DNA of 64,000 bases from a virus (taxonomy: Duplodnaviria > Heunggongvirae > Uroviricota > Caudoviricetes). The notes under the pieces were generated by a model, which did no database searches, was not told the origin of the DNA, and saw only the letters and a program-made list of their open reading frames with translations. The stretch covers positions 10,995-74,994 of IMG/VR virus record IMGVR_UViG_3300021963_008171, one strand, 5' to 3'. The translations under genes and the position numbers were made by a program. Positions 3,219 to 62,838 of this stretch are shown here, in pieces. Each line of letters opens with the position of its first letter. Within the stretch, counting starts at the first letter, position 1.

Positions 3219-3632
3219 ATGAATAAAACGTTGACTATAGTTAGGGGTTTACCCGGATCTGGTAAATCTACATTTGCAAATTTTATCTGGAATGATTACG
3301 CTATTTGTGAGGCTGATAAGTTCTTCTATGATAGCGAGGGACATTATCTTTTTGATCCATCTAAGCTAAAGGAAGCTCACAAGTGGTGCCAGGAAGAAGT
3401 TGAGAAAAGAATGCAGGAGAATCAAAACAATCCCCAATATTATCCAGAAATAGTTGTTTCTAATACATTCACACAGGAATGGGAAATGCAAGCATATTTC
3501 GATCTAGCAAAGAAGTACGATTACAAAGTATTTTCGATAATAGTTGAGAATAGGCACGGAAACACTAATATACACGGGGTACCTGACGATACACTCAAAA
3601 AAATGAGGGACCGATTTCACATATCATTATAA
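3219..3632 (+). CDS. P-loop kinase (AAA_33 / polynucleotide-kinase-like family)
   Basis: Walker A motif GLPGSGKST at the N-terminus, then VVSNTFTQEWEM and a C-terminal HGVPDDTLKKMRDRF, typical of small phage ATP-binding kinases. Confidence 0.7.
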   Translation: MNKTLTIVRGLPGSGKSTFANFIWNDYAICEADKFFYDSEGHYLFDPSKLKEAHKWCQEEVEKRMQENQNNPQYYPEIVVSNTFTQEWEMQAYFDLAKKYDYKVFSIIVENRHGNTNIHGVPDDTLKKMRDRFHISL

Positions 3633-3679
3633 ATTAATATTTAATATTTTTATCAGGGGGGATTTTTGTCTTTCAGTCG

Positions 3680-3710
3680 GATATATAAACTGAAAAAATC
3701 CTCATTCCGT
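3680..3710 (+). promoter_or_regulatory. leader box copy 1: GATATATAAAC-TGAAAAAATCCTCATTCCGT
   Basis: Near-identical to 11676-11707. It starts a 168-nt untranslated leader ahead of envelope module I. A strong hairpin (3748-3755 pairing with 3783-3790, plus an inner AGGG/CCCT pair) follows. Confidence 0.5.
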
Positions 3711-3791
3711 GAAAAAAGATACGACCTTTTTACACGAAGATAGTTACAGTCTTTCAGGACAGGGAAACACGAAGCCCTATCAGAAAGACTT

Positions 3792-9197: not shown

Positions 9198-9455
9198 ATG
9201 AAAAAAATATTAATTATATCATTTTTATTCTTAACAATATCATCTTGTACTAGTTACAAGATTAGGGTAATACAGTATGATGGAACTGGATATTCGTTGT
9301 ATTTGCCAATGAAAAAACACGGATTGGATAAATGGTACGATGATAACATTGTGTACTATTCTGAAGAGATGGCAAGGTTTAAAATTAAAAAATGGAAGAG
9401 TGAGGAATATCATTCGGATCCGTGGAAAAAACCAAAATACATTAAAATAAATTAA
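9198..9455 (+). CDS. small lipoprotein
   Basis: MKKILIISFLFLTISSC contains a lipobox Cys. 85 codons. Confidence 0.6.
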   Translation: MKKILIISFLFLTISSCTSYKIRVIQYDGTGYSLYLPMKKHGLDKWYDDNIVYYSEEMARFKIKKWKSEEYHSDPWKKPKYIKIN

Positions 9456-17966: not shown

Positions 17967-18375
17967 GGAGAACGTTGAAAAATCGTTTTTAAGTATGCTC
18001 GGATTAGAGTCCGGAGAGATTCTTTTTGAATCTCTCTGGAATCATTTTGTTGACCGGGGAGATTTTATTAATGTTGTTCTTTTAGACGGAAGTCCTCTTT
18101 ATAATAGCGAGGGATATCATTTAAAGCCAGTCTATTTGGATCCTGAAACCAGCGATAGCACGTATGATATATTTTATACGCCTTCGGAAATACCTGAGAA
18201 ATTCAGGGGCAAGATTGGTAATTACTACTATATCACAGGGAAAATAAGATTTATGGACGATGGTGGTCCCGCTTCAGATCTTATAGTATACGCAAGGAGA
18301 AAGAATAAAAACGGGGAATGGAAAAAATCCCACAATCAATTAATAGTCTATAAAATAAGACAAAAAGAAGAATAG
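17947..18375 (+). CDS. hypothetical protein
   Basis: ATG 17947 is in frame with track ORF 17938 (which starts at TTG). 142 codons. Confidence 0.5.
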   Translation: MKTEITRENVEKSFLSMLGLESGEILFESLWNHFVDRGDFINVVLLDGSPLYNSEGYHLKPVYLDPETSDSTYDIFYTPSEIPEKFRGKIGNYYYITGKIRFMDDGGPASDLIVYARRKNKNGEWKKSHNQLIVYKIRQKEE

Positions 18376-19859: not shown

Positions 19860-19879
19860 TAAGCATATAACATGCTGTA

Positions 19880-20245
19880 TTGAAAAGGTCAGAGCACTAC
19901 GAGGATTATCCTAAACCGGTTTCAGAATTGACAGAAAAGCTATTAGATGGCTTAGAAGAAGAGAATTTTTTCGAAACTGAACACGCAGATTACAACATCA
20001 CTTTTAGAAGATTCGCAGATTCCGCTTTAAAGAAGTGGATCAAGGGCGATGATATGGATGATTTTACAGAGGAGGAATTTTCTCAAATCCTCCGATTCTC
20101 CATGGTAGAAACAGATCTATTAAGAATGAGTGAAAGGGGATTGCTTGACTCTATAGAAGATTCCAATGGCGAAGCTATGTATTTCTTAACCGACAAGGGT
20201 AAGAAAGAGATAGAAACACTAGTGGAAAAGGAAAAATCCAAATAA
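19880..20245 (+). CDS. hypothetical acidic protein
   Basis: 121 codons with a TTG start only. Confidence 0.45.
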   Translation: MKRSEHYEDYPKPVSELTEKLLDGLEEENFFETEHADYNITFRRFADSALKKWIKGDDMDDFTEEEFSQILRFSMVETDLLRMSERGLLDSIEDSNGEAMYFLTDKGKKEIETLVEKEKSK

Positions 20246-20308
20246 ATTAATCTGGGCATTTACTGAAATAAAATTCATTTCTCCTACTAATATAGAGAAA
20301 GGTAAAGA

Positions 20309-20536
20309 ATGAATAATTTATCATGGTCTTCCGAAGATTCTGCTTCAAAAAAAGCTCAGACAAAGAAGGAGGAAGTAAAGAAAAAGAGGATAGATTACAA
20401 GAAGGAAATAGAGGATCTAGAAAAGATCCATAAGAGAATTCTAGATAAGTACGAACTTCATGCACACAACAAGGTGTCCAATGCTATGATTGATATAAAA
20501 GGAGCCATTGAGAATCTGAAAAAATTTGAGCAATAG
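20309..20536 (+). CDS. hypothetical Lys/Glu-rich protein
   Basis: 75-codon ATG ORF. Confidence 0.45.
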   Translation: MNNLSWSSEDSASKKAQTKKEEVKKKRIDYKKEIEDLEKIHKRILDKYELHAHNKVSNAMIDIKGAIENLKKFEQ

Positions 20537-20537
20537 C

Positions 20538-20753
20538 ATGAACCTTCCCGATAAGATAACTCAGAGTGACATCAAGGCAGCCTCCCTGAAATTCGTAAAA
20601 GAGAGGTTTGGTTTTGTGAACTTGAGATCTGCAGAATCTTATGATATAAATCTTAAATCACATAGGGTATCATACGAGGTTGGTATGATACAAACCCTGG
20701 AAAAAATGGGATACAGAAAGAAGGGGAATTCTTACCTGTACGGAGGAGAGTAA
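20538..20753 (+). CDS. hypothetical protein
   Basis: ATG 20538 is in frame with track ORF 20526 (TTG start) and lies 1 nt after the previous stop. Confidence 0.45.
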   Translation: MNLPDKITQSDIKAASLKFVKERFGFVNLRSAESYDINLKSHRVSYEVGMIQTLEKMGYRKKGNSYLYGGE

Positions 20754-20781
20754 AATCCCTCCACAATATAACGTATTTTAA

Positions 20782-25725: not shown

Positions 25726-26025
25726 ATGACAGAATTGCAAGGTGACAATTTCGAAAGTGCTGTTTCTTCAGCCAAAAAATGTTTAGTAGATTTTTATGCA
25801 ACTTGGTGTGGGCCGTGCAGAGCTATGAATCCGGTTTTAGAAAGTGTAGAGAGTGAATTGGGTGCAGATATTATTTTTAAAATTGACGTTGATAAAAATA
25901 GAGAATTGGTTGAAAAATACGGAATTAGATCCGTTCCAACTTTTATATTTTTTGAAGATGGGGAAGAAAAGGAAAGAAAAAGCGGAGCGATCCCTAAAGG
26001 ATATTTAATAGAATCTTTATCATAA
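25726..26025 (+). CDS. trxA: thioredoxin
   Basis: WCGPC active site in VDFYATWCGPCRAM, followed by VPTFIFF. 99 aa. Confidence 0.9.
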   Translation: MTELQGDNFESAVSSAKKCLVDFYATWCGPCRAMNPVLESVESELGADIIFKIDVDKNRELVEKYGIRSVPTFIFFEDGEEKERKSGAIPKGYLIESLS

Positions 26026-26315
26026 TGGAAAAAATTAAATCATTTAATTCATTTCTTAGCGAGGGAAATAAATCAGGAGAGATGACACCTGATGAGGTAT
26101 ACCAAAGAGCCTCTTCACACAAAAAGTGGTATCATCTTGAAGATTTTGAAAAAGAATTAAAGGCAGGAATAGCAGTGGAAATGGAACACACCAATGACCA
26201 AGAAACCGCTAGAAGAATTGCATTGGATCATCTTTATGAAGATCCCGAATACTATGAAAAATTAGCTAAAGCTGGTTTAATCGATGAACCAGACGCATTG
26301 AAAAATTTGGAATAA
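26025..26315 (+). CDS. conserved small protein (VEMEHT...DHLYEDPEYY motif) with the recurrent N-terminal motif (MEKIKSFNSFLSE)
   Basis: TAATG overlap with the thioredoxin gene. 96 codons. Confidence 0.55.
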   Translation: MEKIKSFNSFLSEGNKSGEMTPDEVYQRASSHKKWYHLEDFEKELKAGIAVEMEHTNDQETARRIALDHLYEDPEYYEKLAKAGLIDEPDALKNLE

Positions 26316-26351
26316 TTTTTCAAAACATTTTTATTTCTCAGGAAACTATCA

Positions 26352-26370
26352 TAGATTTGCATATATAAAC
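26352..26370 (+). promoter_or_regulatory. TAGATTTG (-7 box) immediately followed by CATATATAAAC
   Basis: Both promoter-like motifs are juxtaposed at the 5' edge of the ORF-free region. Confidence 0.5.
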
Positions 26371-26822
26371 ATCTAAAGAAAAAGTTCTTTAAAATATTGG
26401 TTGTTAAAGTTGAAGCGGCAGAATTGGATACATCAAAATCAATTATGCAAGGAACGAATTTGATCTCGTATCAAATTTATCCAAACACCATCTTATCCGG
26501 TCTAATAGGATGAGATACGTCAGACACTAGCTGGATGACGGTAAATTTAGATATTTCTGAATAGAAATTCGGGGCGGCTAACAGGCCTTAGGGGTTAGAG
26601 AATCGTTCACTTAATGGACAACCTCCAGATCTGGAGATTCTCATCTTTACAATAACCAATTAATAAAATACTATCCGACGCGGGATAGGGAGTTACTTCA
26701 CTGCAAACGAAACAACACTCCCTTTCAATATTCTCGGTAAGTTATTCTTATTAAATACATTAAATTGTGTTTGCTTAAATATAGGAAGGCTTATCGACTC
26801 ACGTTGGTAAGCTTTTTTTTTT
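26371..26822 (+). ncRNA. candidate structured non-coding RNA locus (possible Y-RNA/YrlA-like partner of the adjacent Ro60 homolog); one long RNA or two shorter ones
   Basis: No ORF of 60 aa or more. Hairpins at 26427-26472, 26490-26516, 26518-26540, 26553-26568, 26623-26636, 26671-26688 and 26688-26722. Possible long-range helix between 26399-26409 and 26645-26657 with bulges. Ends in a terminator. Confidence 0.55.
26789..26822 (+). terminator. rho-independent terminator
   Basis: GCTTATCGAC, loop tcac, GTTGGTAAGC: 10 bp including 2 G:U pairs, followed by T10 (26813-26822). Confidence 0.8.
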
Positions 26823-26844
26823 GCCAAAAATTTAAAACAAACAT

Positions 26845-28470
26845 ATGAGCAAGTTATCAGAGTACGCGGTTAAGTCCAAAACAGAAATTAGAAAATACGA
26901 GGATCTAGTTGTTGAGAATTTTATGGGGGGTAATTCCTATAAATTGTCACCGCTACAAACACTTAAAATAGTAGCTGCTAGCTCGATCTTCGGGGAGCCA
27001 CAGTACTATAGAGATGGGATAAAGAAGCAGGCTTCGATAAAGAACCATGATACCCTATTGAAATACTCAATATTTGCTGGCCTTATAGAAGGCTGTACCT
27101 CCGCAGCGGACGTTTTTACGAACGCTATTGATGCAGCCTTAGATTATGACTTCAAGGGAACTTTAGACTTAGCTACGGAGCTAAGAATGGTGTTTTTTAT
27201 GAGATTAAACCCAGCCGTCATATTTATACGTGCTTCTATCCATCCAAAAAGAGCAGAATTCAATGGATCCAACCCAGGATACATGAAAACTGTGGGCAAA
27301 TCCATAGCACTTAGACCCGATGATTTAACAAATCAGCTTGAATATTTCATGTACGTGAACAAGACAAAAAGCAAATTAAGCTCCATTGTTAAAAGAACCT
27401 GGGCAGAAAGACTTGGAGAGTATTCAAGATATCAACTAAACAAATACAAAGGCAAAAGTCTAATTGATCTTGTTAGAATTTCACACGCTTGGAATAATGA
27501 TATAGATGAGCTAATGAAGACCGGATCTATCAAGGTTGAAGAATCTGAAAGAACATGGGAAAATTTAAGGTCGGAGGGCAAGACATGGAAGGAGATTCTA
27601 GAAGCAATCGAAATCCCTCACATGGCTCTTTTGAGAAATCTGAGGGGAATCTTCAAAGAAATAGAGGATTTGGAGATTGCTAAATCCGTCATGACAAAAT
27701 TATCGGCTGGTGTTACTAAGGGAAATCAATTTCCATTTAGATATTGGTCTGCATATAAAGCGGTAGAGAAAGAAGAAATAAATCATAAAGGAGTCATTCT
27801 TGATGGATTAGAGGAGTGCATGGACATTTCAGTACTGAATATGCCAAAGCTTGATGGAAAAACTATATGTCTTTCCGATAATTCAGGATCTGCCTGGGGT
27901 CAGTTATCATCAGAATATGGAACGGTTTATGCAGCAGAGATAGCAAATCTTTCTTCACTGATTACTGGAAAACAATCCGACGAAGGCGAAATAGGTTTAT
28001 TCGGAGATCGCCTTATTGTAGAGTCAGTTTCTAAAAGAAATGGACTTCTATCTCAGTTAAAAGCTATCAATGAGGTGGAGAGAGATCATGGTAAATTGGG
28101 GGGAGGCACAGAGAATGGGATTTGGTTGTTCTTCGATGATGCAATCAAGAGTAAAAAACATTACGATAACATTTTTATCTATTCTGATATGCAAGCTGGA
28201 CATGGTGGGTTATATGGAACAGATTCTTCAGAATATAAAGATTTCTTACATGGAGATTGGAGGCATATAGATGTTCTAGCTCTTGTTTCTAAATATAGGA
28301 AAGACGTGAATCCCAAGGTGAATCTATTTTCCGTTCAAGTTGCTGGATATGACAATACAGTATTGCCGGAGAATCTTTATAGGGGAGCTATTTTAGCAGG
28401 ATGGACGGGTAAAGAGCCAGTTTTTGCTAAGGCGTTAATCGACACCTGGAACGAAATAGAAAATCGATAA
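26845..28470 (+). CDS. rsr: Ro60-like TROVE-domain protein with a C-terminal vWA domain
   Basis: By-eye matches to human Ro60: NKYKGKSLIDLVRISHAWN vs YKQRNGWSHKDLLRLSH; IPHMALLRNLRGI vs MPLTALLRNLGKM; NQFPFRY vs RIHPFHI. The vWA MIDAS-like motif is ICLSDNSGSAWG. Confidence 0.85.
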   Translation: MSKLSEYAVKSKTEIRKYEDLVVENFMGGNSYKLSPLQTLKIVAASSIFGEPQYYRDGIKKQASIKNHDTLLKYSIFAGLIEGCTSAADVFTNAIDAALDYDFKGTLDLATELRMVFFMRLNPAVIFIRASIHPKRAEFNGSNPGYMKTVGKSIALRPDDLTNQLEYFMYVNKTKSKLSSIVKRTWAERLGEYSRYQLNKYKGKSLIDLVRISHAWNNDIDELMKTGSIKVEESERTWENLRSEGKTWKEILEAIEIPHMALLRNLRGIFKEIEDLEIAKSVMTKLSAGVTKGNQFPFRYWSAYKAVEKEEINHKGVILDGLEECMDISVLNMPKLDGKTICLSDNSGSAWGQLSSEYGTVYAAEIANLSSLITGKQSDEGEIGLFGDRLIVESVSKRNGLLSQLKAINEVERDHGKLGGGTENGIWLFFDDAIKSKKHYDNIFIYSDMQAGHGGLYGTDSSEYKDFLHGDWRHIDVLALVSKYRKDVNPKVNLFSVQVAGYDNTVLPENLYRGAILAGWTGKEPVFAKALIDTWNEIENR

Positions 28471-28475
28471 TTAGT

Positions 28476-28497
28476 GGGATCTTACGATCCCATTTTT
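28476..28497 (+). terminator. rho-independent terminator
   Basis: GGGATC, loop ttac, GATCCC, then ATTTTT. It starts 6 nt after the stop of the Ro60-like gene and is immediately followed by GATATATAAAT. Confidence 0.7.
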
Positions 28498-28499
28498 CT

Positions 28500-41694: not shown

Positions 41695-42918
41695 ATGGTT
41701 TGGAATTACCAAGATACAGTGCTAGTTCATGTGGAACTTTCCAATCTTTGCAATGCTGCTTGTCCCCTTTGCCCAAGATATGTAAACAATTCGTTAAGGG
41801 TCAATCCAGAATTGGACTTGGGCAGCGTTTCTTTTGAGGATTTTAAAAAATGGTTCCCTCTAGAATTTGTACAAAAAAGTAAAGGATGGATATTCTGCGG
41901 TACTAATGGCGACCCCATGATGGCTAGAGACGTGTATGAGATATTAGAATATGTTCTCAGAAATTCGACTGCTAAGGTCCAGGTCAACACTAACGGTTCC
42001 ATAAGAGACGGGGAATTTTGGGAAAAAATAGGATCTTTATTTGCCGAGCCCTGTGAAAATAGCAGATATGTTGTTTTCTCTGTTGATGGACTGGAGGACA
42101 CGAACCACATCTACAGAAGAAACGTGAAATGGGAGAGGGTGATGGAAAATATGAGAGCCTATGCAAAATCAGGATCTACTGGTATTTGGGACTTTCTAAT
42201 ATTCAAGCACAATGAGCATCAGCTAGAGGAGGCTGAGCTTCTCTGCAAAGAAATAGGTCTAGCATTTTCTCCAAAAAGACCCTTTGGGTTTGAAACGGGA
42301 AATCCTGATGAATACCAGGACTTAATGGTTTATGACATGGAAGGAAATTTTTTATACAAGATAGAGCCGGCCAGCGAGGAGTGGAGATTAAATAGATCCA
42401 TGAATAAATTTGAGAGAGGAGAGGAAAAAATATGGATTCCGGGAAAGGGGAAAAGAACAGATGATGAAATCAAAGAAAAGTGGAATGGACTGATCGAGAG
42501 GGATCTTCCTAAATATAAATTCCCGGAAAGATTCAAAGAAAAATCAGTTAGTTGCAAATCTTGCCATCCTATCGGGAAGGAAATTTATGTTGATTGTAAG
42601 GGAAATGTTATGCCTTGCTGCTTTGTTGGAACAATGTACAACAGTGACTTTCAACACCACGAGGCATTACAGATAAAAAAACATTTATGGGACTGGGGAT
42701 TGGATAAAATAAATCTGAATAATCATTCTCTCAAAGATATACTAGATAGCAAATATCTAGATGAGGTTTTTGCCAACCGCTGGGAAGGAGCTAAGGATGA
42801 GGATAAAATGGGATATTGCTTTAACACATGCTCGGTTGATCACATGAAAGATCTTTTTGTCAGAAAGGAAAATCTACCAATTTCTTCAGAAAAATCAGGC
42901 AAAAAAAGTCTTATCTAG
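41695..42918 (+). CDS. radical SAM enzyme with a Cys-rich (SPASM/twitch-like) C-terminal region
   Basis: CxxxCxxC in LSNLCNAACPLCPRY. The C-terminal region has CKSCHP...CKGNVMPCCF...CFNTC. Confidence 0.75.
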   Translation: MVWNYQDTVLVHVELSNLCNAACPLCPRYVNNSLRVNPELDLGSVSFEDFKKWFPLEFVQKSKGWIFCGTNGDPMMARDVYEILEYVLRNSTAKVQVNTNGSIRDGEFWEKIGSLFAEPCENSRYVVFSVDGLEDTNHIYRRNVKWERVMENMRAYAKSGSTGIWDFLIFKHNEHQLEEAELLCKEIGLAFSPKRPFGFETGNPDEYQDLMVYDMEGNFLYKIEPASEEWRLNRSMNKFERGEEKIWIPGKGKRTDDEIKEKWNGLIERDLPKYKFPERFKEKSVSCKSCHPIGKEIYVDCKGNVMPCCFVGTMYNSDFQHHEALQIKKHLWDWGLDKINLNNHSLKDILDSKYLDEVFANRWEGAKDEDKMGYCFNTCSVDHMKDLFVRKENLPISSEKSGKKSLI

Positions 42919-42933
42919 GGACATTTTTTGGGC

Positions 42934-42944
42934 GATATATAAAA
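42934..42944 (+). promoter_or_regulatory. GATATATAAAA motif
   Basis: Ends 1 nt before ATG 42946. Confidence 0.35.
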
Positions 42945-42945
42945 T

Positions 42946-45441
42946 ATGAACGATAAGATAAATTTAGTCTATGACGATTGGCCTCTTGATCAGGAAAGGC
43001 CGAATCCCAATGGAGATAAATATTTTCCAGAAGCAAATGCCTGGATGACTGGTGATGGTCCGATGGAGACTCTTCGATACTGCAATTACGTCAACCGAAG
43101 AATGGAAGATGTCGACAAGTACCAGGAGGAAAATTTCTTTTATGTTGTTTGGCATCGACATTCTCTCTATGACAGATTTTTGTATTTTGACAGACTTCCA
43201 ATAGGTGATGATATGATAGGGGCTTTCCAAAGAAAGCCAAATCTTTATCTTCTTTTAATAAACGATCAAGAGATAGAGCCTATAGAAACTATAAGCAAAC
43301 TTGATCTCGCTCTAGAAAGAAATAATATAGATCCAAGAAAGGTTTTTGTAGTTAACAACAATTCTAGAAATTGGGAATATAAAAAAGAATTGGGGAGTAA
43401 TATTAATGTTCATAGTACGAGGGCAATGCCTCTAGCATTGGCTAAAATTCCCAGAAGTAATTTCGTAGAGAATAAAGAAGGGCATTTTTTCATGTCACAC
43501 AACCATTCTTTAAGAGAAAGCAGATCCGCGTTTGTGTGTCTCTTAAAAAAATATGGACTGATCGATGATTTTGATTGGTCTTATTTGAAGCTCTGGAGAC
43601 TACCTGGTGAGGATTGGATAACTATCTATAGAAGAATATTCAACGATTCCGATATGGAATTCATGATGCCAGAAATAGAATATTTTAATTCTTATGGTAT
43701 TAAGAAAAGCAATTACGAGTCACATTTTCCGTGGCTTGATGAAATGACAACTAATAGTCCTTCTTGGTGGGAAACATTTAATTCACAGCAGTACGAGAAT
43801 ACCTATTTTAATGTAACTGTGGAAACACAATATTTTGGAAGGGACCTTCACATAACAGAAAAGTCATTTAAACCCTTTATCCATCTGCAGTTTCCTATGA
43901 TTCTTGCCTCCAGACATCATATAAAACATATGCGGGAGTATTACGGGTATGATTTTTTCGATGATGTGATTAACCACGATTATGATAACGTCGTAAGTGA
44001 TAGAGATAGAATCTTTAGGTTCATAGAAGAACTAAAAAGAATTCAGGAGAATAAAGAATTCTTTATCGATTTTTATAAAAATAACAAGGAAAGATTTCGG
44101 AGGAATCAAGAAATGGTTTATCAATTCACCAATGAATATGATGCTAGCTATTTCAGGGCATTGACAAAATTTGATCACCCAAAGAAAACCCTTAATCTTG
44201 TTTATGATAATTGGGATACCCAAACTAATCGCCCATTAAGAGGCAATTCTGAAGATCTTTACCTAAGTACATTCCACATGAATGTTGACAGTGTAGTTGG
44301 ATCCTTACAATTTGATAGAAGATTAATCAGAAGATATAGATTGGAAGATGTTCCTAAGATAAAAAATGAGACATTCTTTTATTTTGTCACCTTAATTCCT
44401 GGCATCCTAGCGGAGAATTTAAGATCTGGAAAACTACCAATAAATAGAGATGCTATCAACATGCTCAAGAATTATTCAAACTTTAATGTGATAATAATGA
44501 ATGAGCAGGAAGCAGAAAGAAAAGAAACACTGGTTCTTCTTGATAAATGGTCCAAAGAATCCGGCTTAAATCAGCAACAAATTTGGTTTTCTAATAACAA
44601 CCCAAGACTACAAGAATTCAAAGAGGAAATAGGAACTGATATAAATGTTCATTCGACAGTTAGACTTGCTAATTTCACAGCAAATTCTGTTATACATTCA
44701 GTGGGAAGGGTGGAGTTCAAGTCTGAGAAAGACGGGGAATTTTTCATGTGTCACAATAGAAGGCCAAGACCGCATAGATATGGTTTACTATGCTTGCTTA
44801 AAAAGAGCGGGGTTTTAGATGATGTTGATTGGTCTTTAGTTCAAGGGTTTCAGTTCAAGGGAAATAAGCACCCTGAATCCTTCTTTAGAACAATATTTAA
44901 CGATGAAGATATAGAAAACATGAGAGAAGAAATTGAGTACTTCTCTAACATAGAACAAAAGAAAAGTAGATACGAGGAAGAAAGAACATGGTTCGATGAT
45001 AGGGAAAATGAAAATAATGTTCCTTGGAATGAAACCTATGATAAAAATCAGTTGGAAAATTCATATTTCAATATCACAACAGAAACTGAATTTTCATCAG
45101 ATCTGACACACATATCAGAAAAATCTTTCAAAGCTTTCTGTGCAATGCAGTTTCCCATGATTCTTGCATCTGCTCACCACATCAGAGAAATTAAAAAGAA
45201 ATATGATTTTGATTTTTTTGATGATGTGATCAATCACGATTATGACGACGAAGAGAATCACAGAGACAGACTTTTTAAATTTGTAAAAGAGATAAAAAGA
45301 ATAAACGACAACAAGGAGTTCTTCATAGAATTTTATAAGAACAACAAATTTAGATTCGAGGAAAATCTTAGAAAAATAGAGGAGAAAGTAAAGGATCAAT
45401 CAGATTCTGACTTTTTAAAAAGAATATCTGGTATAATATGA
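42946..45441 (+). CDS. tandem-duplicated two-module enzyme, fucosyltransferase (GT10/GT11)-like C-terminal motif in each half
   Basis: The halves (aa 1-~411 and ~412-831) are colinear. Shared blocks: INLVYDDW/LNLVYDNW, NVHST, FFMSHN/FFMCHN, LCLLKK.G..DD.DWS, and HITEKSFKPFIHLQFPMILASRHH/HISEKSFKAFCAMQFPMILASAHH followed by FFDDVINHDYD. Confidence 0.45.
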   Translation: MNDKINLVYDDWPLDQERPNPNGDKYFPEANAWMTGDGPMETLRYCNYVNRRMEDVDKYQEENFFYVVWHRHSLYDRFLYFDRLPIGDDMIGAFQRKPNLYLLLINDQEIEPIETISKLDLALERNNIDPRKVFVVNNNSRNWEYKKELGSNINVHSTRAMPLALAKIPRSNFVENKEGHFFMSHNHSLRESRSAFVCLLKKYGLIDDFDWSYLKLWRLPGEDWITIYRRIFNDSDMEFMMPEIEYFNSYGIKKSNYESHFPWLDEMTTNSPSWWETFNSQQYENTYFNVTVETQYFGRDLHITEKSFKPFIHLQFPMILASRHHIKHMREYYGYDFFDDVINHDYDNVVSDRDRIFRFIEELKRIQENKEFFIDFYKNNKERFRRNQEMVYQFTNEYDASYFRALTKFDHPKKTLNLVYDNWDTQTNRPLRGNSEDLYLSTFHMNVDSVVGSLQFDRRLIRRYRLEDVPKIKNETFFYFVTLIPGILAENLRSGKLPINRDAINMLKNYSNFNVIIMNEQEAERKETLVLLDKWSKESGLNQQQIWFSNNNPRLQEFKEEIGTDINVHSTVRLANFTANSVIHSVGRVEFKSEKDGEFFMCHNRRPRPHRYGLLCLLKKSGVLDDVDWSLVQGFQFKGNKHPESFFRTIFNDEDIENMREEIEYFSNIEQKKSRYEEERTWFDDRENENNVPWNETYDKNQLENSYFNITTETEFSSDLTHISEKSFKAFCAMQFPMILASAHHIREIKKKYDFDFFDDVINHDYDDEENHRDRLFKFVKEIKRINDNKEFFIEFYKNNKFRFEENLRKIEEKVKDQSDSDFLKRISGII

Positions 45442-47105
45442 AAAAGGTACTAATTACAGGATGCAATGGTTTAGTTGGAAGCTATCTAAGAGATCTTTGT
45501 TTAGATAATGGATGGAAAGTTACTGGTGTAGATAGAAACGCAACAAAGAGAATTACCAGAGATTTTAATTACAAATTTAAAAAACTAGACTTATTAATAG
45601 AACAAAATATAATAGATCTTTTTAAAGATGAAAAATATGATGTAGTATTTAATTGTTTTGGAATTAAAGGATCTCCAGTAAGGGCAAAAAATAATCCTGT
45701 TGATTTTCTGTACCCGTCTTTTAAAATAAACACTGAGATAATAAATCAATGTTATTTAAACGACACGTGGTTGGTTTTTGTTAGCTCTGTTGGTGTTTAT
45801 AGCCCAGCAGAAAAATTCTCAGAAGATGATGTTTGGAAAACACTACCATCAGAATCCGATTGGTTTCCGTCTTGGTCTAAAAGAATGGGAGAATTGCTAT
45901 TGGAATCATATCGGGTTCAATATGGATACAACAAATGGACGATAGTAAGACCAGCAAATATATTTGGTGAATACGACGACTTTAGTGGTAGTGGAACATT
46001 GATATCAACCATGGTAAAAAAGGTCTACGAATCTTCTGGAGAGATTGAAGCATGGGGAGACGGCACACCTATCAGGGATTTTGTTTACGGAAAAGACGTT
46101 GCTTTGTCTTTAATAAAACTTTATGAAGAAGAAATAAACGATATAGTTAATTGCGGGTCAGGAATAGAGGTATCAATAAAAGATGTTGTTGAAGAAATTA
46201 TAAAAGCAAGCGGGAAGGAAATCTCAGTAAAATGGGATTCTTCTAAACCTAATGGAGATCTTAGAAGACTAATGGATACCACAAGACAGGAAATTCACGG
46301 GATAATGCCAAAAACCAATTTTTCCGATGCTATACTTAATGTTTATAAATATTACTCAGGTCTTTTCGAAGAGGAGTTACCAGTAATATCTAAAGACGAT
46401 TTGCTCGTCGAAGGTGCATATGTTGGAAAAATATCTGATTTCCTAGAGGAGGATGAATTAGAGCTTTTCAAAGAAATGATAGAGGATGTTAAAGAGTACT
46501 CCTCCGAAGATATTGAAAATAGACTTTCGTGCAAATATAATTATGACGATATAGTAAATGAATATGACCATAATATTCCACCCAGTAAAGTTGCGGAGAG
46601 AGATGCATTTATTCGAAAGAATAAATATCACGTTTGGCAAAAATGGTGGGATTTTAGGTATCCTAAAGAGTCATATTTCAGCGAGATAGCCACAAAAATA
46701 TTAAAGGATCTTTACCCACAGGCTGCCGCTGCTTTGAATGAGGCTAAGATATCAGGATCTATGGCACTTTTTGAAGATGGACATTTCATAGACATTCACA
46801 ACGATGGAGCTAATGTAGGAAGACTTTGTGTAATTATATTCTATCTCTCCGACCCTTCTGCTCATAATAACGGGGGAGGGGAATTAAGAATAATTACCAG
46901 CACAGGAAAAGAATTTATAATAGATCCAGTTTTTGATAATTTCTGCGTGATGGATTTTGCAAAGAATAACATAAAACATGAAGTAAAGATGGTTAATAAC
47001 GGATTTAAAAGATATACCTATATAAATTTTATATCACTCAAAGATGGGATTTTAGAATCAATTTTCCCGAACGAAATAAAAATAGAAAAGAAAAAAATAA
47101 TATGA
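45438..47105 (+). CDS. fusion protein: NAD(P)-dependent epimerase/reductase (extended SDR) plus C-terminal 2OG-Fe(II) oxygenase-like domain
   Basis: N-terminus VLITGCNGLVGSYL, RPANIFG and WGDGTPIRDFVY. C-terminus IDIHNDGANVGRLCVIIFYLSD...GGGELRI...IKHEV...RYTYINF, giving HxD, a distal His and an Arg. Confidence 0.65.
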   Translation: MKKVLITGCNGLVGSYLRDLCLDNGWKVTGVDRNATKRITRDFNYKFKKLDLLIEQNIIDLFKDEKYDVVFNCFGIKGSPVRAKNNPVDFLYPSFKINTEIINQCYLNDTWLVFVSSVGVYSPAEKFSEDDVWKTLPSESDWFPSWSKRMGELLLESYRVQYGYNKWTIVRPANIFGEYDDFSGSGTLISTMVKKVYESSGEIEAWGDGTPIRDFVYGKDVALSLIKLYEEEINDIVNCGSGIEVSIKDVVEEIIKASGKEISVKWDSSKPNGDLRRLMDTTRQEIHGIMPKTNFSDAILNVYKYYSGLFEEELPVISKDDLLVEGAYVGKISDFLEEDELELFKEMIEDVKEYSSEDIENRLSCKYNYDDIVNEYDHNIPPSKVAERDAFIRKNKYHVWQKWWDFRYPKESYFSEIATKILKDLYPQAAAALNEAKISGSMALFEDGHFIDIHNDGANVGRLCVIIFYLSDPSAHNNGGGELRIITSTGKEFIIDPVFDNFCVMDFAKNNIKHEVKMVNNGFKRYTYINFISLKDGILESIFPNEIKIEKKKII

Positions 47106-48076
47106 TAAACAAGAATTCAAGAATTTTAATTACCGGTGGATCTGGATTGGTTGGACAAAATTTAACTGAAAGACTAGTCAGAGAGGGATATACAGATTTA
47201 AGAGTAAATCTTCATAGAAGAGGAGTTAGAAAGGTTCATGACGGTGTTAATTACACATATCATGATCTACAAACATACGAAGGGTGTAAAATCGCAACAG
47301 TGGACGTTGATGTTGTTTTTCATGCCGCTGCTTCAACCTCAAATGCAGTTGATACTGTAGTAGATCCTTTAGCACACGTTACACCAAATGTTGCTATGAA
47401 TAATTTTCTTATAGATGCAGCTTGGAGGAATAATGTACAGCACTATATTTTCATTTCTTCCAATACCGTTTATCCACCAAAGGGTGATGAGCCTGTGGTA
47501 GAAACAGATTTTCTATTTGATGAACCTTATCCAGTATATTTTCCAGTTGGCTGGATGAAAAGATACGCAGAGGTTCAGTGCGAACTTTACGGAAAATATC
47601 TCCCAAGAAAGATGAAATCAACTGTGATAAGACCAGCCAATTTGTTTGGTCCTCATGATAAGTACGATTTCAATAAATGTCACGTTACCCCAGCAACAAT
47701 AAGAAAGGTAGCAGACAAAATGAACCCGATTCCTGTTTGGGGTGACGGATCGGAATTAAGGGATCTCCTTTTCGTAGAAGATTTTGTAGAAGCTCTACAG
47801 ACGGTAATGGAAAAAGAAACTGAAATGTTCGAGGTGTATAATGTTGGATCTAATAAAGTATATTCAGTTCTTGATGTTCTTGAGAAGATGAAAAAGATTG
47901 CAGACTATGATGCACCGACAGAGTTCATTAGTGGAAAGCCTTCTATGATACCAACTAGAAAAATAGATTCTAATAAAATCAAAGAAAAATTAGGATGGGA
48001 GGCAAAAACCCCCCTAGAAGATGGATTGGCTATAGCTTATAATTGGTATCTTGAGAATAATAAAGAATTCAAATAA
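47102..48076 (+). CDS. GDP-L-fucose synthase (Fcl/GMER)-like NAD(P)-dependent epimerase/reductase
   Basis: [14 protein letters not shown]. By-eye matches to E. coli Fcl: [26 protein letters not shown] vs [64 protein letters not shown] vs GWYHEISLEAGLASTYQWFLEN. Confidence 0.75.
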   Translation: [324 protein letters not shown]

Positions 48077-48077
48077 T

Positions 48078-48983
48078 ATGAAGGGATTGATTTTTGCTGG
48101 TTGTTCTTTTACCTGGGGTCAGGGATTATATTACTATTCGGGATTGAATACTTTAGTCGAGCCTGAACCAGATTGTTATGATGCTAGTCTTATCACAGAT
48201 GCCCATAAAAGATATATGGAAACACTGAGATATCCCAGGATAGTTGCAAATCATTTCAACACGTTTGAGTTGGTGTCTAAGCAAAATGGAGGATCTGAAG
48301 AAAGTTCGATTGATTTTATTAATTCAGCATTTGGAATTGGGGAAAAATTTGGATTTTTAACAGATCAGGAATTTTCTTTTAGCGAAATAGAATATGTTAT
48401 AATACAAACATCCCAACCGAATAGAAATGGATTTTACTTCCAATACGAGGGAGAGGAACATAAATTCTTGATTCACGAAAAATCATCAAAAGGTAAATTT
48501 TACGAATGGCTTATAGAAGAAAGAAAATTAACTATCGATGAGTGGTTTGAAGAGCACAAGGAAACATACATTGAGAAAATAAAAAGATTGATGAAGTTCC
48601 TTGAATCCAATGGAATTAAAACGAAAATACTCTGCTGGGAGAACGATTATTTAAATCTAATCAGATCTGATATTTTTATGTACAACAGATTTATCCCGTT
48701 GGAATACAGAGGGGATCAATTTTCGTCCATAAGAGATTTAATGTCCAAACACTCGCATCTTACCATAAATTCAGATTATGATAACTTTCAGGATCCTCCG
48801 AAGGATCACCATCCATCTAAAGAATGTCACCAGGTTCTAGCAGAATCTGTTATAAAATCTATAGAAAGTGATCTGAAGAATTTAAGCGAAACCCATATTT
48901 TTGATGATCACAGGGAGTTTATGAAAACTCTTCCTTGTCCAGCAAAAGAGCCAATTATAAAAAAGGCTAAAACCCTTATATAG
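48078..48983 (+). CDS. divergent SGNH-like hydrolase
   Basis: ATG 48078 is in frame with track ORF 48051. The N-terminus LIFAGCSFTWGQG has GCS in place of GDS. The C-terminus is PKDHHPSKECHQVLAESV. Confidence 0.45.
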   Translation: MKGLIFAGCSFTWGQGLYYYSGLNTLVEPEPDCYDASLITDAHKRYMETLRYPRIVANHFNTFELVSKQNGGSEESSIDFINSAFGIGEKFGFLTDQEFSFSEIEYVIIQTSQPNRNGFYFQYEGEEHKFLIHEKSSKGKFYEWLIEERKLTIDEWFEEHKETYIEKIKRLMKFLESNGIKTKILCWENDYLNLIRSDIFMYNRFIPLEYRGDQFSSIRDLMSKHSHLTINSDYDNFQDPPKDHHPSKECHQVLAESVIKSIESDLKNLSETHIFDDHREFMKTLPCPAKEPIIKKAKTLI

Positions 48984-50421
48984 GTTTTTCTGGTGGATAT
49001 GGATAAGTACCTGTTTCGAAGTGCGTTATTCTTCCATCGTTAAGATTAACTACTGGAATGGATTGATCAACTTTTATAGCCCCATACCATTCAGCTAATT
49101 CTGGAAAAGTCTCTTTGAAGTTCTTACCCCTTCTACTATCATATTGTACATAGAAGCTTTTGAAATCATGGTGTAGTATCGATTTATCGTCTTCTGTTGT
49201 ATTGTGCCCTTTCTCTACAACCTGTATGTAATCCAATAATCTTTGAACCTGAGCAAATTCTCCAACACTGAATAAATTGGGTGTCATTTTTTCGTTGAAC
49301 CATTTACTCAATTTTGCATGAAGCTCAGCTTTGATTTCATCAGGAAGAACTAATGGTGACATAAATGCCGGCCATCTTAGAATATTAAGATCAACGTTTG
49401 GTTTATTTGCACCATATTTCTTTTTTAGTTCTATCATATCATCCAAGAAATCAGTGATGCTAAATAGACATAAACTGTTGATTGTCATCATTATGGTTAA
49501 AGATCTTAATTTAGCTCTTTCGATTAAGCTAACAAGATTGCTTCTCCATGTTTCGTAAACTAATCCGTCTCTAATATATTCTGCATGTCTTCCATAGGAT
49601 TCGTTGCTAGTATAGATGTCCATTTCTTTAATGTCCATCGTGTGTGACATTGCTATCATCTTCTCTAATGTTTGTTCTGTCATTCCGAGATTTGAATTAA
49701 CAGCAAGTCTTAGATTAGGAGAAGGGTTGGATTTTAATATGTCTATGAAATCCCAAAAATTGTGGCTCAAAGAAGGCTCTCCCCCTGTAATTCTGATCTC
49801 CTCTAATGTTTGAGATAACTCTGGCCACCATTCGAAAAAAGCCTGTACGAATGGATTCCTTTCGTTATACTTTCCAAATATTTCTGACCAAGAACCGTCA
49901 CTTCGGTATGCACCCGCTGAATCTGTTCTCATCTTTTGATATGGACCAAATTGCTGAATTTCCTTTCCCCACGTGGTACTGTATCCTGCATTACAATAGC
50001 TACACGCAAAATTACAAGTTCTATCAAAGCTTATTTCTAATGTCTTTAAAAGAATATCATCTCTGTAATCGGTCTCTTCTATTTTAGCTATGTCTTCCTC
50101 GTTATAGATGATGCTTTTGTAAACCCTGTCAGATACATTGTTTCTCCCTATGTCCTCTATTTTCCAGCAATAAGAGCATTCTGCAGGTCTAATGCCACTA
50201 AGCATCATTTTTCGCATTTGCTTTTTATGCCTTGTGTTGTGAATTGCAGAAGGATTTGTTTTTATTTCTTCCAAGTCTATAGGATGCGGAAGGGGTAAAT
50301 GGCAGGATCCGGTGTATCCATGTCCAAGATGTATACTTGCATTGTACCATTTCGCTGCACAAAAGCTTTTGCTTATCTTATTAAGGTTTTTTTCTCTCCA
50401 GTCTATCAGTTCTTTTGACAT
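48976..50421 (-). CDS. radical SAM enzyme (paralog of 50989..52383)
   Basis: CxxxCxxC in DRTCNFACSYCNAGYS. The N-terminal Cys/His cluster is CAAKWYNASIHLGHGYTGSCHLPLPH...ECSYCWKIED. Confidence 0.75.
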   Translation of the reverse strand: MSKELIDWREKNLNKISKSFCAAKWYNASIHLGHGYTGSCHLPLPHPIDLEEIKTNPSAIHNTRHKKQMRKMMLSGIRPAECSYCWKIEDIGRNNVSDRVYKSIIYNEEDIAKIEETDYRDDILLKTLEISFDRTCNFACSYCNAGYSTTWGKEIQQFGPYQKMRTDSAGAYRSDGSWSEIFGKYNERNPFVQAFFEWWPELSQTLEEIRITGGEPSLSHNFWDFIDILKSNPSPNLRLAVNSNLGMTEQTLEKMIAMSHTMDIKEMDIYTSNESYGRHAEYIRDGLVYETWRSNLVSLIERAKLRSLTIMMTINSLCLFSITDFLDDMIELKKKYGANKPNVDLNILRWPAFMSPLVLPDEIKAELHAKLSKWFNEKMTPNLFSVGEFAQVQRLLDYIQVVEKGHNTTEDDKSILHHDFKSFYVQYDSRRGKNFKETFPELAEWYGAIKVDQSIPVVNLNDGRITHFETGTYPYPPEKPI

Positions 50422-50429
50422 AGTCTAAA

Positions 50430-51011
50430 TTATATTTGGTGTAGAAAATTGCAGTTATCTGTTAGATCGTAGCTTTTTCCGTGGATGAATTCTTCGAATA
50501 CATGCTTACTTATAGTTTCTTCGTCTCTTATTATTTCCAGTTCATGAAGAATTACCTCAAGATAATTGAGATTAAATTCATTTTTCGGGAAATTCCCAGC
50601 TCCAAATATTATATGTGAATTTGTGTCTGCTGCTAATTTGTCGTTTATAAAATAAAGGGTTAATGCATTTCCGTCTATATAAACAGTTATTACACCATTT
50701 CCTTTTGTTACCAACAATTCATATTTTCTGTTTGGCTCCCATTCAAAGTTACAAGAAAGATATTCAGTTTTTCCTTTACCGTCAGTAACAATTAATAGCA
50801 TGCCATATTCCTCCAGATCTATTCCAAGGTAGCTGGGAAGTTTAGCAAATAGAGTTGATTTTCTAGTTATTTCTTTCTCTAGTTCAAAGACTAGCTTAAA
50901 ACTAAAATCCCCTTCATAATCAAATATGTGATTTGCTGGATCTTTTATGAATTTTTGTCCTAATATATTAGGCCACATTATCCAGGGTTCACCCTCTTTT
51001 ATTTTTAACAT
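50430..51011 (-). CDS. LamG/concanavalin-like jelly-roll protein
   Basis: FSFKLVF...RKYELLVTKGNGVITVYIDGNAL...NSHIIFGAGNF...LEVILHELEII fits the Laminin_G_3 pattern. Confidence 0.5.
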   Translation of the reverse strand: MLKIKEGEPWIMWPNILGQKFIKDPANHIFDYEGDFSFKLVFELEKEITRKSTLFAKLPSYLGIDLEEYGMLLIVTDGKGKTEYLSCNFEWEPNRKYELLVTKGNGVITVYIDGNALTLYFINDKLAADTNSHIIFGAGNFPKNEFNLNYLEVILHELEIIRDEETISKHVFEEFIHGKSYDLTDNCNFLHQI

Positions 51012-60725: not shown

Positions 60726-60737
60726 CAAATTTTATAT

Positions 60738-60812
<75 letters not shown>

Positions 60813-62735: not shown

Positions 62736-62794
62736 AGCCATTTTTTCCCTTTCTAAAATAAAATCACCTTCTTTCCTGTTTAATCATATTTCTT

Positions 62795-62806
62795 GAATAT
62801 ATAAAT
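62795..62806 (+). promoter_or_regulatory. GAATATATAAAT motif
   Basis: 32 nt upstream of ATG 62839 of the collagen-like gene. Confidence 0.4.
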
Positions 62807-62838
62807 GAACTCGATAGAGTCAAAATTCAAAGAAATAG

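Follow-up and report, generated by a model that had tools for sequence, protein, structure and literature searches.

A gap of 529 nt without a conserved ORF (26316-26844) in the window (the whole 64,000-nt stretch of DNA that was analysed, from a large uncultured phage) harbours two paralogous Y-RNA-like modules in tandem, module A (26404-26650) and module B (26670-26742), upstream of the gene for a 541-aa Ro60-type protein on the same + strand. In this work we establish the structure and conservation of this RNA, its linkage to the protein gene and, from a predicted model, the Ro60 fold of the protein. The locus is likely to be a phage operon with a Y-RNA-like array and Ro60, in which the modules would act as Ro60-binding platforms and the apical domain of module A would tether a partner. 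The earlier note on this DNA had proposed a virus-encoded Ro60 with its own adjacent Y-type RNA, and this is supported computationally by the fold, the covariation, the linkage and a motif shared with the YrlA RNA of phage G. Its suggestion of a new class of RNA holds at the subfamily level, on account of the absence of a tRNA-like core and the novel apical domain; the concept itself is not new, because phage Ro60/Y RNA pairs have already been published (PMC4201824, PMC12135203).

The + strand of the gap contains zero ORFs, as reported before, and the single ORF present (44 aa, 26693-26827) lies on the - strand. No conserved ORF was found in this region among the relatives, where the longest ORF varies between 19 and 155 aa and switches strand. 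The folding z-score of the gap was -5.1 on the + strand vs. -2.5 on the - strand. The gap had been described as one hairpin-dense RNA; instead, it comprises two modules built on a common plan, namely a basal stem, an asymmetric internal loop (nGCGG on the 5' side and ..AUUC on the 3' side), a 10-bp stem 2 and an apical UAC(U/A)UC.

Module B is a compact Y-like hairpin of 73 nt (26670-26742, + strand) delimited by an alignment of compact copies (A4), a covariance model (R1) and MFE folding. Stem 1 (26670-26678/26734-26742) leads to the internal loop (CGCGG at 26679-26683 on the 5' side and AAUAUUC at 26727-26733 on the 3' side), stem 2 (26684-26693/26717-26726) and an A-rich apical loop of 23 nt that starts with UACUUCA (26694-26700). 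Compared with simple Y RNAs of the YrlB/Yrn2 type, the module is likewise a long interrupted hairpin, but it has this 23-nt, A-rich loop. Its single-sequence MFE fold is identical to the comparative structure, and model R1 scored 78.5 bits on it (E 1e-18). In alignment A4 (87 distinct compact copies) 81.3% of the cells were paired, vs. 61.5% in shuffled alignments and at most 51% in slid registers, and double-sided changes were observed at 19 out of 19 pairs (0 of 500 shuffles as high). One hairpin drawn by eye in this region (26688-26722) corresponds to stem 2 and shows strong covariation; another (26671-26688) was not supported by the comparison, which puts its bases in the 5' strand of stem 1 and the nGCGG loop.

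Module A, including its outer helix, extends from 26397 to 26660 (+ strand) according to an alignment of spliced ends, the MFE fold and RNAalifold. The outer helix (UUGGUU 26397-26402/AACCAA 26654-26659) is followed by stem 1 (26404-26413/26641-26650), the internal loop (AGCGG 26414-26418 and GAGAUUC 26634-26640), stem 2 (26419-26428/26624-26633) and the apical UACAUCA (26429-26435). The alignment of spliced ends (A6, n=39) had 75.3% of its cells paired vs. 59.0% in the shuffles, with a covariation of 0.486 vs. 0.226 in the shuffles, a value that 0 of 500 shuffles reached. Stem 2 showed double-sided changes at 9 of its 10 pairs, though it was left out of anchoring. The MFE fold of 26397-26660 had a z-score of -4.1, and RNAalifold recovered the long-range helices again in close relatives. 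The bulged long-range helix suspected previously (26399-26409/26645-26657) is thus stem 1 plus the outer helix, supported by the alignment and by RNAalifold. The hairpin proposed at 26623-26636 is a palindrome and forms locally in the MFE fold, but the comparison prefers the 3' strand of stem 2 for these bases. The comparison with homologous loci that the earlier note had recommended gave a positive outcome: the helices of both modules covary.

The two strands of module A stem 2 enclose a branched apical insert of approximately 190 nt (26436-26623, + strand), defined from the folds of relatives and from hairpin covariation. It carries the conserved block AUAGAAAUUCGGGG and the hairpin GUUCA-CUUAA-UGGAC (26605-26619); the C(G/A/U)UAA hairpin of the insert accumulated 8-15 double-sided changes per pair. 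Three further hairpins seen by eye (26490-26516, 26518-26540 and 26553-26568) are present in the MFE fold and sit inside this insert, which is variable (87-206 nt across 53 relatives). In the fold computed for the sister clade, the apical domain is branched and includes a GCUAU/GUAGC helix formed over a long range. When whole module A was aligned across all clades (MAFFT and RNAalifold), a single hairpin was obtained, since the central part could not be aligned; the analysis relied instead on spliced ends and on folds for individual clades.

The apical insert gave zero Rfam matches at E<=10 (tRNA, YrlA and Y_RNA included) and ARAGORN was likewise empty. The Rfam tRNA and YrlA models (E<=10) and ARAGORN were also empty on the whole gap, in agreement with the previous failure to see a tRNA-like module. 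The proposed search of the gap with the Y_RNA and YrlA models was run and neither matched, which speaks against these named families; Rfam at the gathering score and at permissive thresholds returned only chance-level pntA, ctRNA and snoRNA matches on the gap. The RNAs of 12 diverse related loci gave no YrlA or tRNA match at E<=0.5. As a positive control, the YrlA model scored 36 bits on phage G (the gathering score of Rfam YrlA, RF02553, is 69 bits).

A promoter-like element (26342-26359, + strand) is located near the start of the gap, as noted earlier. It consists of GAAAC (26342-26346) and the Bacteroidota-type -7 box TAGATTTG (26352-26359), which are predicted from their sequence to act as a promoter. 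Of 59 related loci, 34 have a TAnnTTTG box that precedes module A by 33-56 nt, mostly with GAAAC ahead of it, and on the + strand of the window this box is approximately 2-fold enriched in non-coding DNA (12 of 41 copies in 13.8% of the sequence). The comparison of the 59 loci also revealed a leader block, (A/C)GUUCUUUAA (26383-26392, + strand), which precedes module A by 10-25 nt in almost every one of them and is kept even where the RNA comes straight after a tRNA. GUUCUUUAA does not recur throughout the window (2 copies vs. 1.3 expected, the second within a CDS); the block may be the 5' end, a processing site or part of the promoter.

The gap ends in an intrinsic terminator (26784-26822, + strand; core stem 26789-26798/26803-26812, U10 26813-26822). 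The 10-bp stem and T10 described before were confirmed: the extended fold (26784-26817) had -16.9 kcal/mol and a z-score of -5.5, and is located 22 nt 5' of the ATG. This terminator was overlooked by a simple terminator scan and was picked up by folding. In all of the 51 loci tested, a strong terminator hairpin follows the last module and precedes the TROVE start codon. The terminator is probably leaky, because its U-tract is only 22 nt from the Ro60 ATG. The terminator assigned to the protein gene itself was also recovered (28473-28499, + strand; 9-bp stem and U-tract, -12.4 kcal/mol, z-score -4.8).

The 541-aa protein (26845-28470, + strand) combines a TROVE/HEAT-repeat ring with a vWA domain harbouring a MIDAS-like DNSGS (residues 345-349). 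The TROVE blocks and MIDAS-like motif recognised by eye were corroborated by Pfam TROVE (PF05731, 27.7 bits, cutoff 23), by phrog_850 'RNA-binding protein' (E 5e-42) and by structure prediction. In the PDB, the sequence matched phiRo60 of phage phiLo (E 3e-15). The AF2 model (pLDDT 79, pTM 0.80) is of the Ro60 fold: the best 13 Foldseek matches in the PDB were all Ro60, Rsr or phiRo60, with full-length alignments of 505-616 columns and a highest TM of 0.72. DNSGS aligns with DVSGS of phiRo60 and is invariant across 34 homologs; in total the protein has about 4,000 homologs.

Y RNAs in general are encoded no more than a few kb from the Ro60 gene, in bacteria and phages usually in its orientation, and the window RNA conforms to this. 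Of 68 related metagenome loci, 66 have a compact module upstream of the TROVE gene and in the same orientation (median distance to the ATG, 91 nt), and none of the 68 has one on the other strand or downstream. Modules also occur in 25 of the 43 genome loci, most of which are from Bacillota MAGs. The same-strand linkage spans TROVE protein identities from 45 to 92%, different hosts and different gene neighbourhoods, and RNA-motif scans of IMG/VR detected the full RNA solely beside TROVE genes; extra exact-motif loci lacking a TROVE gene were rejected as chance matches within CDS. The RNA and the gene stand 330-1380 nt apart in several loci, with additional ORFs in between, and some copies are fused to tRNA genes (L012, L069). 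Phage G has four unannotated compact modules in tandem in the 1-kb gap upstream of gp540, and one further module among tRNAs 3.7 kb downstream of the gene. Weaker signature matches were found in crAss-like phages and one haloarchaeal virus. A third module candidate in the window (18186-18285, - strand, 17 bits) was discarded; it is antisense within a 145-aa ORF and has neither stem 2 nor the UACUUC block. The loci of phage G, a Desulfovibrio phage and csAssE gave no BLASTN match to the gap, no near-identical phage was found in INPHARED, and no PNPase, RNA-repair or RNA-decay gene (including rtcB/rtcA) was found among the neighbouring genes.

Ro60 and Rsr proteins bind the bulged basal helix of Y RNAs. 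Members of the family hold Y RNA on the outside of their ring and the ends of misfolded RNA in its central cavity, and Y RNAs are stabilised by Ro60 in vivo. Where the earlier note had failed to see the metazoan Ro-binding sequence by eye, the candidate Ro-binding-like sequences UCCGA-C-GCGG and GUUGA-A-GCGG are present in the window RNA, and the motif regions (GUUGAAG in module A, UCCGACG in module B) resemble the published GNCGAAN0-1G of bacteria and GGUCCGA of metazoa (PMC4201824). The strict GNCGAAN0-1G is found in 6 of the 87 compact modules and in none of the 39 copies of module A; the family's own signature YNGA-n-GCGG is found in 84 and 39 of them, respectively. The consensus of Rfam YrlA has the same layout as the modules (basal stem, 5-nt/7-nt asymmetric loop, second stem). 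A close parallel is phage G, whose gp540 (TROVE) and YrlA-type RNA have been published (Chen et al. 2014, PMC4201824). The window protein shares 50.5% identity with gp540 over the full length, the phage G RNAs are likewise upstream and on the same strand, and phage G YrlA has the same frame, CCUGA-AGCGG-stem-UACUUCGA...stem-AAUAAUC-UCAGG. However, the phage G frame encloses a canonical tRNA-like core (T and D arms), whereas in the window it encloses a plain loop (module B) or the branched, non-tRNA-like domain (module A).

The nearest solved structure is that of phiRo60 (PDB 9KOP, 9L5Y; 23-24% protein identity), which binds two Yrl RNAs (Yrl1/Yrl2) and host PNPase (Hu et al. 2025, PMC12135203). 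As in the window, the non-coding stretch just before the phage Ro60 gene encodes two Y-like RNAs, with a CGAA-type motif at the junction of stem and internal loop and two motif-bearing hairpins in one of the RNAs. The phiLo RNAs are short, and the binding of phiRo60 and host PNPase is experimental; model R1 did not detect the validated Yrl RNAs upstream of phiRo60. [quoted passage not shown] In M. smegmatis one precursor, encoded upstream of rsr, yields both YrlA and YrlB, and function in these systems, among them the Rsr-Y RNA-PNPase complex RYPER, depends on tethering Ro60 to an effector (PMC4201824). Metazoan Y RNAs (RF00019) resemble the window RNA in that their two ends pair into a helix broken by a bulge or an internal loop, with CCGA nearby on the 5' strand, and in that the upper part varies, but they show no sequence or covariance-model similarity to it. 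They are RNA polymerase III transcripts from separate genes and measure 80-130 nt, the size range of known Y RNAs. Module B (73 nt) is close to this range; module A (247 nt) and the unit from promoter to terminator (approximately 450 nt) fall outside it.

The region might act only as a cis-acting 5' leader, with Ro60 binding its own leader and controlling terminator read-through by autogenous attenuation, and no separate functional RNA or RNP; we consider this unlikely. The 22 nt between U-tract and ATG leave apparently no space for a promoter of the gene's own, and the terminator holds the same place in every locus tested. The 5' arm of the terminator, CUUAUCGA (26790-26797), is complementary to UCGGUAAG (26734-26741), the 3' strand of stem 1 in module B; this complementarity covers 8-9 contiguous pairs in 8 loci of the window's subclade and is therefore a possible anti-terminator in that subclade, but it falls to approximately 4 pairs (background) in most other clades. 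The array and distant module of phage G, the ORFs that separate RNA and gene in several loci, and the stable, trans-acting nature of the homologous YrlA-type RNAs (PMC4201824) argue against a leader alone, and the conserved 190-nt apical domain exceeds the needs of an attenuator. Attenuation and the operon reading can coexist.

Even less probable is a structured non-coding RNA that acts independently, such as a ribozyme, a decoy or a substrate for tRNA-related processing, and that is syntenic with the TROVE gene but unbound by its product. The lack of an Rfam family, the scarcity of the strict Ro-binding motif, the copies fused to tRNA genes and the abundance of tRNA and tmRNA genes in both the window and phage G genomes would fit such an RNA. 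Against it, the same-strand linkage persists at 45-92% protein identity in varied hosts and neighbourhoods, the module motif frames YrlA of phage G, and motif-based scans gave no copy apart from TROVE genes. It is highly improbable that a small coding gene or promoter/operator DNA, and not an RNA, underlies the conservation of the gap: the 44-aa ORF exists and the conserved AT-rich blocks could serve as DNA sites, but ORF length, frame and strand are all unconserved, indels are not multiples of three, compensatory changes affect every module pair and the folding signal is strand-specific.

In the operon that we favour, the order would be promoter, modules A and B, leaky intrinsic terminator, Ro60 gene and terminator. 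Each module would offer a recognition platform formed by a basal helix ending in (Y)NGA/UCN(R), a loop with GCGG (5') and UUC (3'), a 10-bp helix and UAC-UC; GCGG, UUC and UAC-UC are invariant. This platform is most likely where the phage Ro60 ring binds, in the way that Ro60/Rsr proteins bind the basal helix of Y RNAs. Stoichiometry and processing are suggested by analogy: one transcript may carry two Ro60 sites, or may be cleaved into two RNPs as in M. smegmatis, and the terminator would keep the RNA in excess of Ro60 mRNA. The precedent of Y RNA loops and of the tRNA-like domain of YrlA, its proposed effector module, suggests that the apical domain of module A might tether a partner or gate its access. 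In other systems host PNPase is documented in this role, so that host RNA decay or quality control could be redirected in infection, possibly as counter-defence. A more speculative version, which we regard as doubtful, is that this domain is a new effector-recruiting fold that replaces the YrlA tRNA-like domain and recruits a host factor other than PNPase or acts on RNA itself. If true, this would be a new kind of phage RNP, for instance one neutralising RNA-targeting or nuclease-based host defence.

Conservation of Ro60/Y RNA particles extends from bacteria to humans, and how the variable part of the Y RNA chooses the effector is only partly understood. To our knowledge, bacterial and phage Y RNAs are known almost solely via the tRNA-like YrlA model. 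The signature stem, nGCGG, stem, UAC-UC ... AUUC, stem picks up Y-like modules absent from Rfam in large freshwater phages, many Bacillota genome and prophage contigs and phage G, and offers an annotation route for many unannotated phage non-coding regions. The locus also shows that the tRNA-like domain can give way to a simple loop or to a large structured domain of another kind, and this natural series of apical domains provides a test of their role as effector modules. The window RNA would represent a new subfamily of Y RNAs with a phage Ro60 as its partner, with binding and function deduced from its likeness to known particles.

The gap between the DUF5661 gene and the gene of the 541-aa Ro60-type protein (26845-28470, + strand) spans 529 nt (26316-26844) and had been described in the earlier note as free of ORFs; the ORF search found none on the + strand and a single one, of 44 aa, on the - strand. 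A promoter-like box (TAGATTTG, 26352-26359, + strand) was recognised from the sequence. The terminator proposed at the end of the gap was overlooked by a simple terminator scan and recovered by folding. It consists of a 10-bp core stem (26789-26798/26803-26812, + strand) plus U10, its extended fold has -16.9 kcal/mol (z -5.5), and it lies 22 nt from the ATG. The separate terminator ascribed to the protein gene was also found (28473-28494, + strand; terminator scan and folding). Against shuffles, the folding of 26371-26822 reached z -5.1 on the + strand and only z -2.5 on the - strand. As the gap, the terminators and the + strand folding all hold, the observation of the earlier note is confirmed. 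The DUF5661 gene (26025-26315), which lies between a thioredoxin gene and the RNA, is missing in four related loci (L004, L005, L008 and L009), where the RNA directly follows the thioredoxin gene, indicating an indel at the upstream border of the operon.

In 12 IMG/VR loci (proteins 65-89% identical), the quality of the alignment was similar for the upstream region and the coding sequence; invariant blocks alternated with stretches of compensatory changes, and indels were not multiples of three. No conserved ORF was found in the gap region of the relatives. Exact-motif scans of IMG/VR with two conserved RNA blocks located the complete RNA solely beside TROVE genes (TROVE being the RNA-binding ring domain of Ro60 proteins); the other matches were due to chance, all inside coding sequence. 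Iterated profile searches revealed that the 3' part of the RNA (module B, 26670-26742, + strand) recurs widely, often as tandem duplicates, and that the large domain (module A) has a 5' block matched by the 5' half of module B. Compact module B is formed by stem 1 (ACUAUCCGA/UCGGUAAGU), a 5-nt loop (CGCGG), a 10-bp stem 2, an apical loop beginning UACUUCA and a 7-nt loop (AAUAUUC). When 87 distinct copies were aligned with MAFFT, with no fitting to any structure, 81.3% of the cells were paired (61.5% in shuffles, at most 51% in slid registers), double-sided changes occurred at 19 of 19 pairs, and no shuffle out of 500 came up to the alignment in any measure. In stem 1, the four inner pairs were formed in 87/87 copies, with CG replaced by UA in 21 copies and AU by UA or GC in 11.

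Module A (26404-26650, + strand) has the same frame: stem 1 (UUAAAGUUGA/UCAUCUUUAC), loop AGCGG and stem 2 (CAGAAUUGGA/UCCAGAUCUG), then UACAUCA, an insert of about 190 nt and GAGAUUC; an outer helix encloses it (26397-26402/26654-26659, + strand). With the apical insert spliced out, the two helices were 75.3% paired in 39 relatives versus 59.0% in shuffles, and covariation was 0.486 versus 0.226 (0/500 shuffles as high). Stem 2, which was not used in anchoring, had double-sided changes at 9 of its 10 pairs. GCGG, UAC-UC and UUC are the invariant unpaired bases of the modules. Covariation, the check proposed for the helices, was thus found in both modules, and the bulged long-range helix suspected by eye proved real in the module A comparison. 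Two of the seven hand-folded hairpins were re-assigned by the comparative data: for the palindromic hairpin at 26623-26636, the likelier role is as 3' strand of module A stem 2, and the bases of that at 26671-26688 make up stem 1 (5' strand) and the adjoining loop in module B. Directly 5' of module A, at 26383-26392, lies a conserved block, (A/C)GUUCUUUAA, which is specific to this Y-like RNA family and is a candidate 5' end mark, processing site or promoter part. Should TAAAAT (26390-26395) act as a -10 box, the transcript would not contain the outer helix of module A. A possible third module at 18186-18285 (- strand; CUGAAGCGG ... UUCUCAG, 17 bits, E 0.04) is antisense inside a 145-aa ORF and was judged a chance match.

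Within the apical insert, which measures 87-206 nt in relatives, covariation marks a hairpin that carries a C(G/A/U)UAA loop and lies at 26605-26619 in the window. In the well-sampled sister clade the insert has a branched fold in which GCUAU and GUAGC form a long-range helix and conserved single-stranded blocks, e.g. CUAGAAAU, lie between the helices; the fold in the window's own clade is partly resolved. One natural variant (IMG/VR 3300008107_010192; L011/L017 vs L014/L006) lacks about 60 nt of the insert, comprising two hairpins, with the rest intact, which means that these hairpins can be dispensed with, unless the contig represents a deletion variant. The tRNA, YrlA (bacterial Y RNA with a tRNA-like domain, Rfam RF02553) and Y_RNA models had no match in the gap at E<=10, so the Rfam check suggested earlier was negative, nor in the RNAs of 12 diverse loci at E<=0.5. 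An ARAGORN tRNA search of the gap RNA and related RNAs was also negative. These searches bear out the failure to see a tRNA-like module by eye, and the insert is not recognisably tRNA-like.

Next to TROVE genes the compact module is widespread. Among 68 metagenome loci that had 400 nt or more of sequence 5' of the gene (protein identity 63-92%), 66 had it upstream on the TROVE strand, at a median of 91 nt from the ATG, and 18 had two copies; the opposite strand and the region 3' of the gene start gave no match in these 68 loci. A terminator hairpin separated the last module from the gene in 51/51 loci tested. With R1, the covariance model of the compact module, 25 of 43 genome loci (44-55% identical, mostly Bacillota MAGs) yielded modules on the strand of the TROVE gene; apart from two cases, they preceded the gene by no more than a few hundred nt. 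In Bacillus phage G, four tandem copies (3252-3764, 35-59 bits) fill part of an unannotated 1-kb gap 5' of gp540, and a fifth (9357-9431) lies among tRNA genes 3.7 kb downstream, all additional to the YrlA-type RNA at about 1783-1935. Weak R1 matches were obtained in a crAss-like phage, around the YrlA of phage csAssE-Sib and directly 5' of the TROVE gene of the haloarchaeal virus HGTV-1 (2245-2346, 16 bits, E 0.05; blocks GCGA, AUACUUCAA and CAAUUUCA); the latter suggests that the module platform may reach archaeal viruses. In csAssE-Sib, an annotated tRNA-Lys (3487-3560) sits in a Y-like frame at 3456-3595 (GAGUGGUGA-stem-GUUACUUCGA ... stem ... CCCUCA; weak, 10.8 bits) and may be a YrlA-type RNA instead of, or besides, a tRNA. 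In L012/L066 and L069/L070, the Y-like RNA begins about 10 nt past the 3' end of a tRNA gene, an arrangement suggesting that the two are transcribed together and that tRNA-processing enzymes free the Y-like RNA.

The breadth of this linkage makes it quite improbable that the RNA is unrelated to the TROVE gene and merely syntenic with it, and the covariation and strand asymmetry leave hardly any likelihood that the gap is conserved as a protein-coding gene or DNA site. A purely cis-acting, autoregulatory leader of the Ro60 gene is an unlikely explanation, although such a role could coexist with one in trans. In the window's subclade, pairing over 8-9 bp is possible between the 5' arm of the terminator and the 3' strand of module B stem 1, but this complementarity is at background in most clades, and the tandem arrays, distant copies and large apical domain favour a trans-acting RNA.

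The claim of TROVE blocks and a vWA MIDAS-like DNSGS in the 541-aa protein was upheld. Pfam TROVE was barely over threshold (27.7 vs 23 bits, limited to residues 230-312), PHROG 850 'RNA-binding protein' matched near full length (E 5e-42), and the sole significant PDB sequence relative was phiRo60 of Thermus phage phiLo (E 3e-15), whose DVSGS aligned with DNSGS 345-349. The 13 best PDB matches of an AlphaFold2 model built from 34 homologs (pLDDT 79, pTM 0.80) were all Ro60 structures (phiRo60, human and Xenopus Ro60, D. radiodurans Rsr; 505-616 columns aligned), followed by isolated vWA domains only. The protein is thus predicted to have the Ro60 fold. It belongs to a large family, about 4,000 homologs passing E<=1e-10 and some of them lying on 200-300 kb contigs; the closest cultured relative is phage G gp540 (50.5% identity).

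Phage-encoded Ro60 with Y-like RNAs is already established. YrlA-type RNAs were reported in 22 phages (Chen et al. 2014, PMC4201824), phage G being named among them (Hu et al. 2025, PMC12135203), and the phiRo60 of phiLo binds two Yrl RNAs encoded in its upstream non-coding region (PMC12135203). A species usually has a tRNA-like Y RNA together with a simple hairpin one, and in M. smegmatis both are upstream of rsr in a single precursor (PMC4201824). The phage G YrlA scores 36 bits on RF02553, confined to the tRNA-like core, and its frame (CCUGA-AGCGG-UAAAAGCAGU-UACUUCGA ... ACUGUUUUA-AAUAAUC-UCAGG) is that of the window's modules; the Rfam YrlA consensus has the same layout of stem, 5-nt/7-nt loop and stem, with different loop letters. 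Because these layouts match, the presumed Ro-binding platform is common to the window's RNA and a published phage Y RNA. The published 5'-strand motif GNCGAAN0-1G (PMC4201824) occurred in its strict form in 6/87 compact modules and 0/39 module A copies; the family's own signature, YNGA-n-GCGG, was nearly invariant. R1 did not detect the validated phiLo Yrl RNAs. Known Y RNAs are 80-130 nt long, a range greatly exceeded by module A and by the whole unit. The earlier note had suggested a new class: unlike YrlA, the window's RNA has no tRNA-like domain and does not attain the RF02553 score, but its basal frame is common with phage G YrlA, and we file it as a putative new Y-RNA subfamily, not as YrlA.

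No close relative of the window was found among deposited phage genomes; the relatives it has are contigs in IMG/VR, the longest being 245 kb, and most of its large ORFs lack a PHROG match. A Bacteroidota host would be consistent with the promoter box, which is of the TAnnTTTG type. At 60314-60812, a full-length phage-encoded tmRNA (80 bits) is followed 10 nt on by tRNA-Met (CAT); phage G likewise has a tmRNA and tRNAs close to its TROVE gene. Several radical SAM/SPASM-type proteins and a nucleotide-sugar epimerase-like gene cluster at 41695-53843 (both strands). Three regions, 19860-20781 (922 nt), 2101-2544 (444 nt) and 62736-64000 (1265 nt), have no ORF of at least 80 aa, and an Rfam gathering-score scan of them found no RNA.

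From the RNA structure, the TROVE linkage and the Ro60 fold, we infer the following mechanism as the most likely. Transcription would begin downstream of the TAnnTTTG box and yield a two-module RNA, the majority of transcripts ending at the U10 terminator and a fraction reading through to allow Ro60 expression. The Ro60-type protein would bind the platform of stem, internal loop and UAC-UC in each module, giving a two-ring particle or, following processing, two separate RNPs. The apical domain of module A may act as an effector tether, as do the tRNA-like domain or loops of other Y RNAs; the documented precedent is host PNPase, with which both phiRo60 and the Yrl RNAs interact (Hu et al. 2025, PMC12135203). 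As phage Bas63 has a Ro60-like protein that counters the Ppl system (PMC11482910), a role of the window's Ro60 and RNA in countering host defence is, by analogy, plausible.
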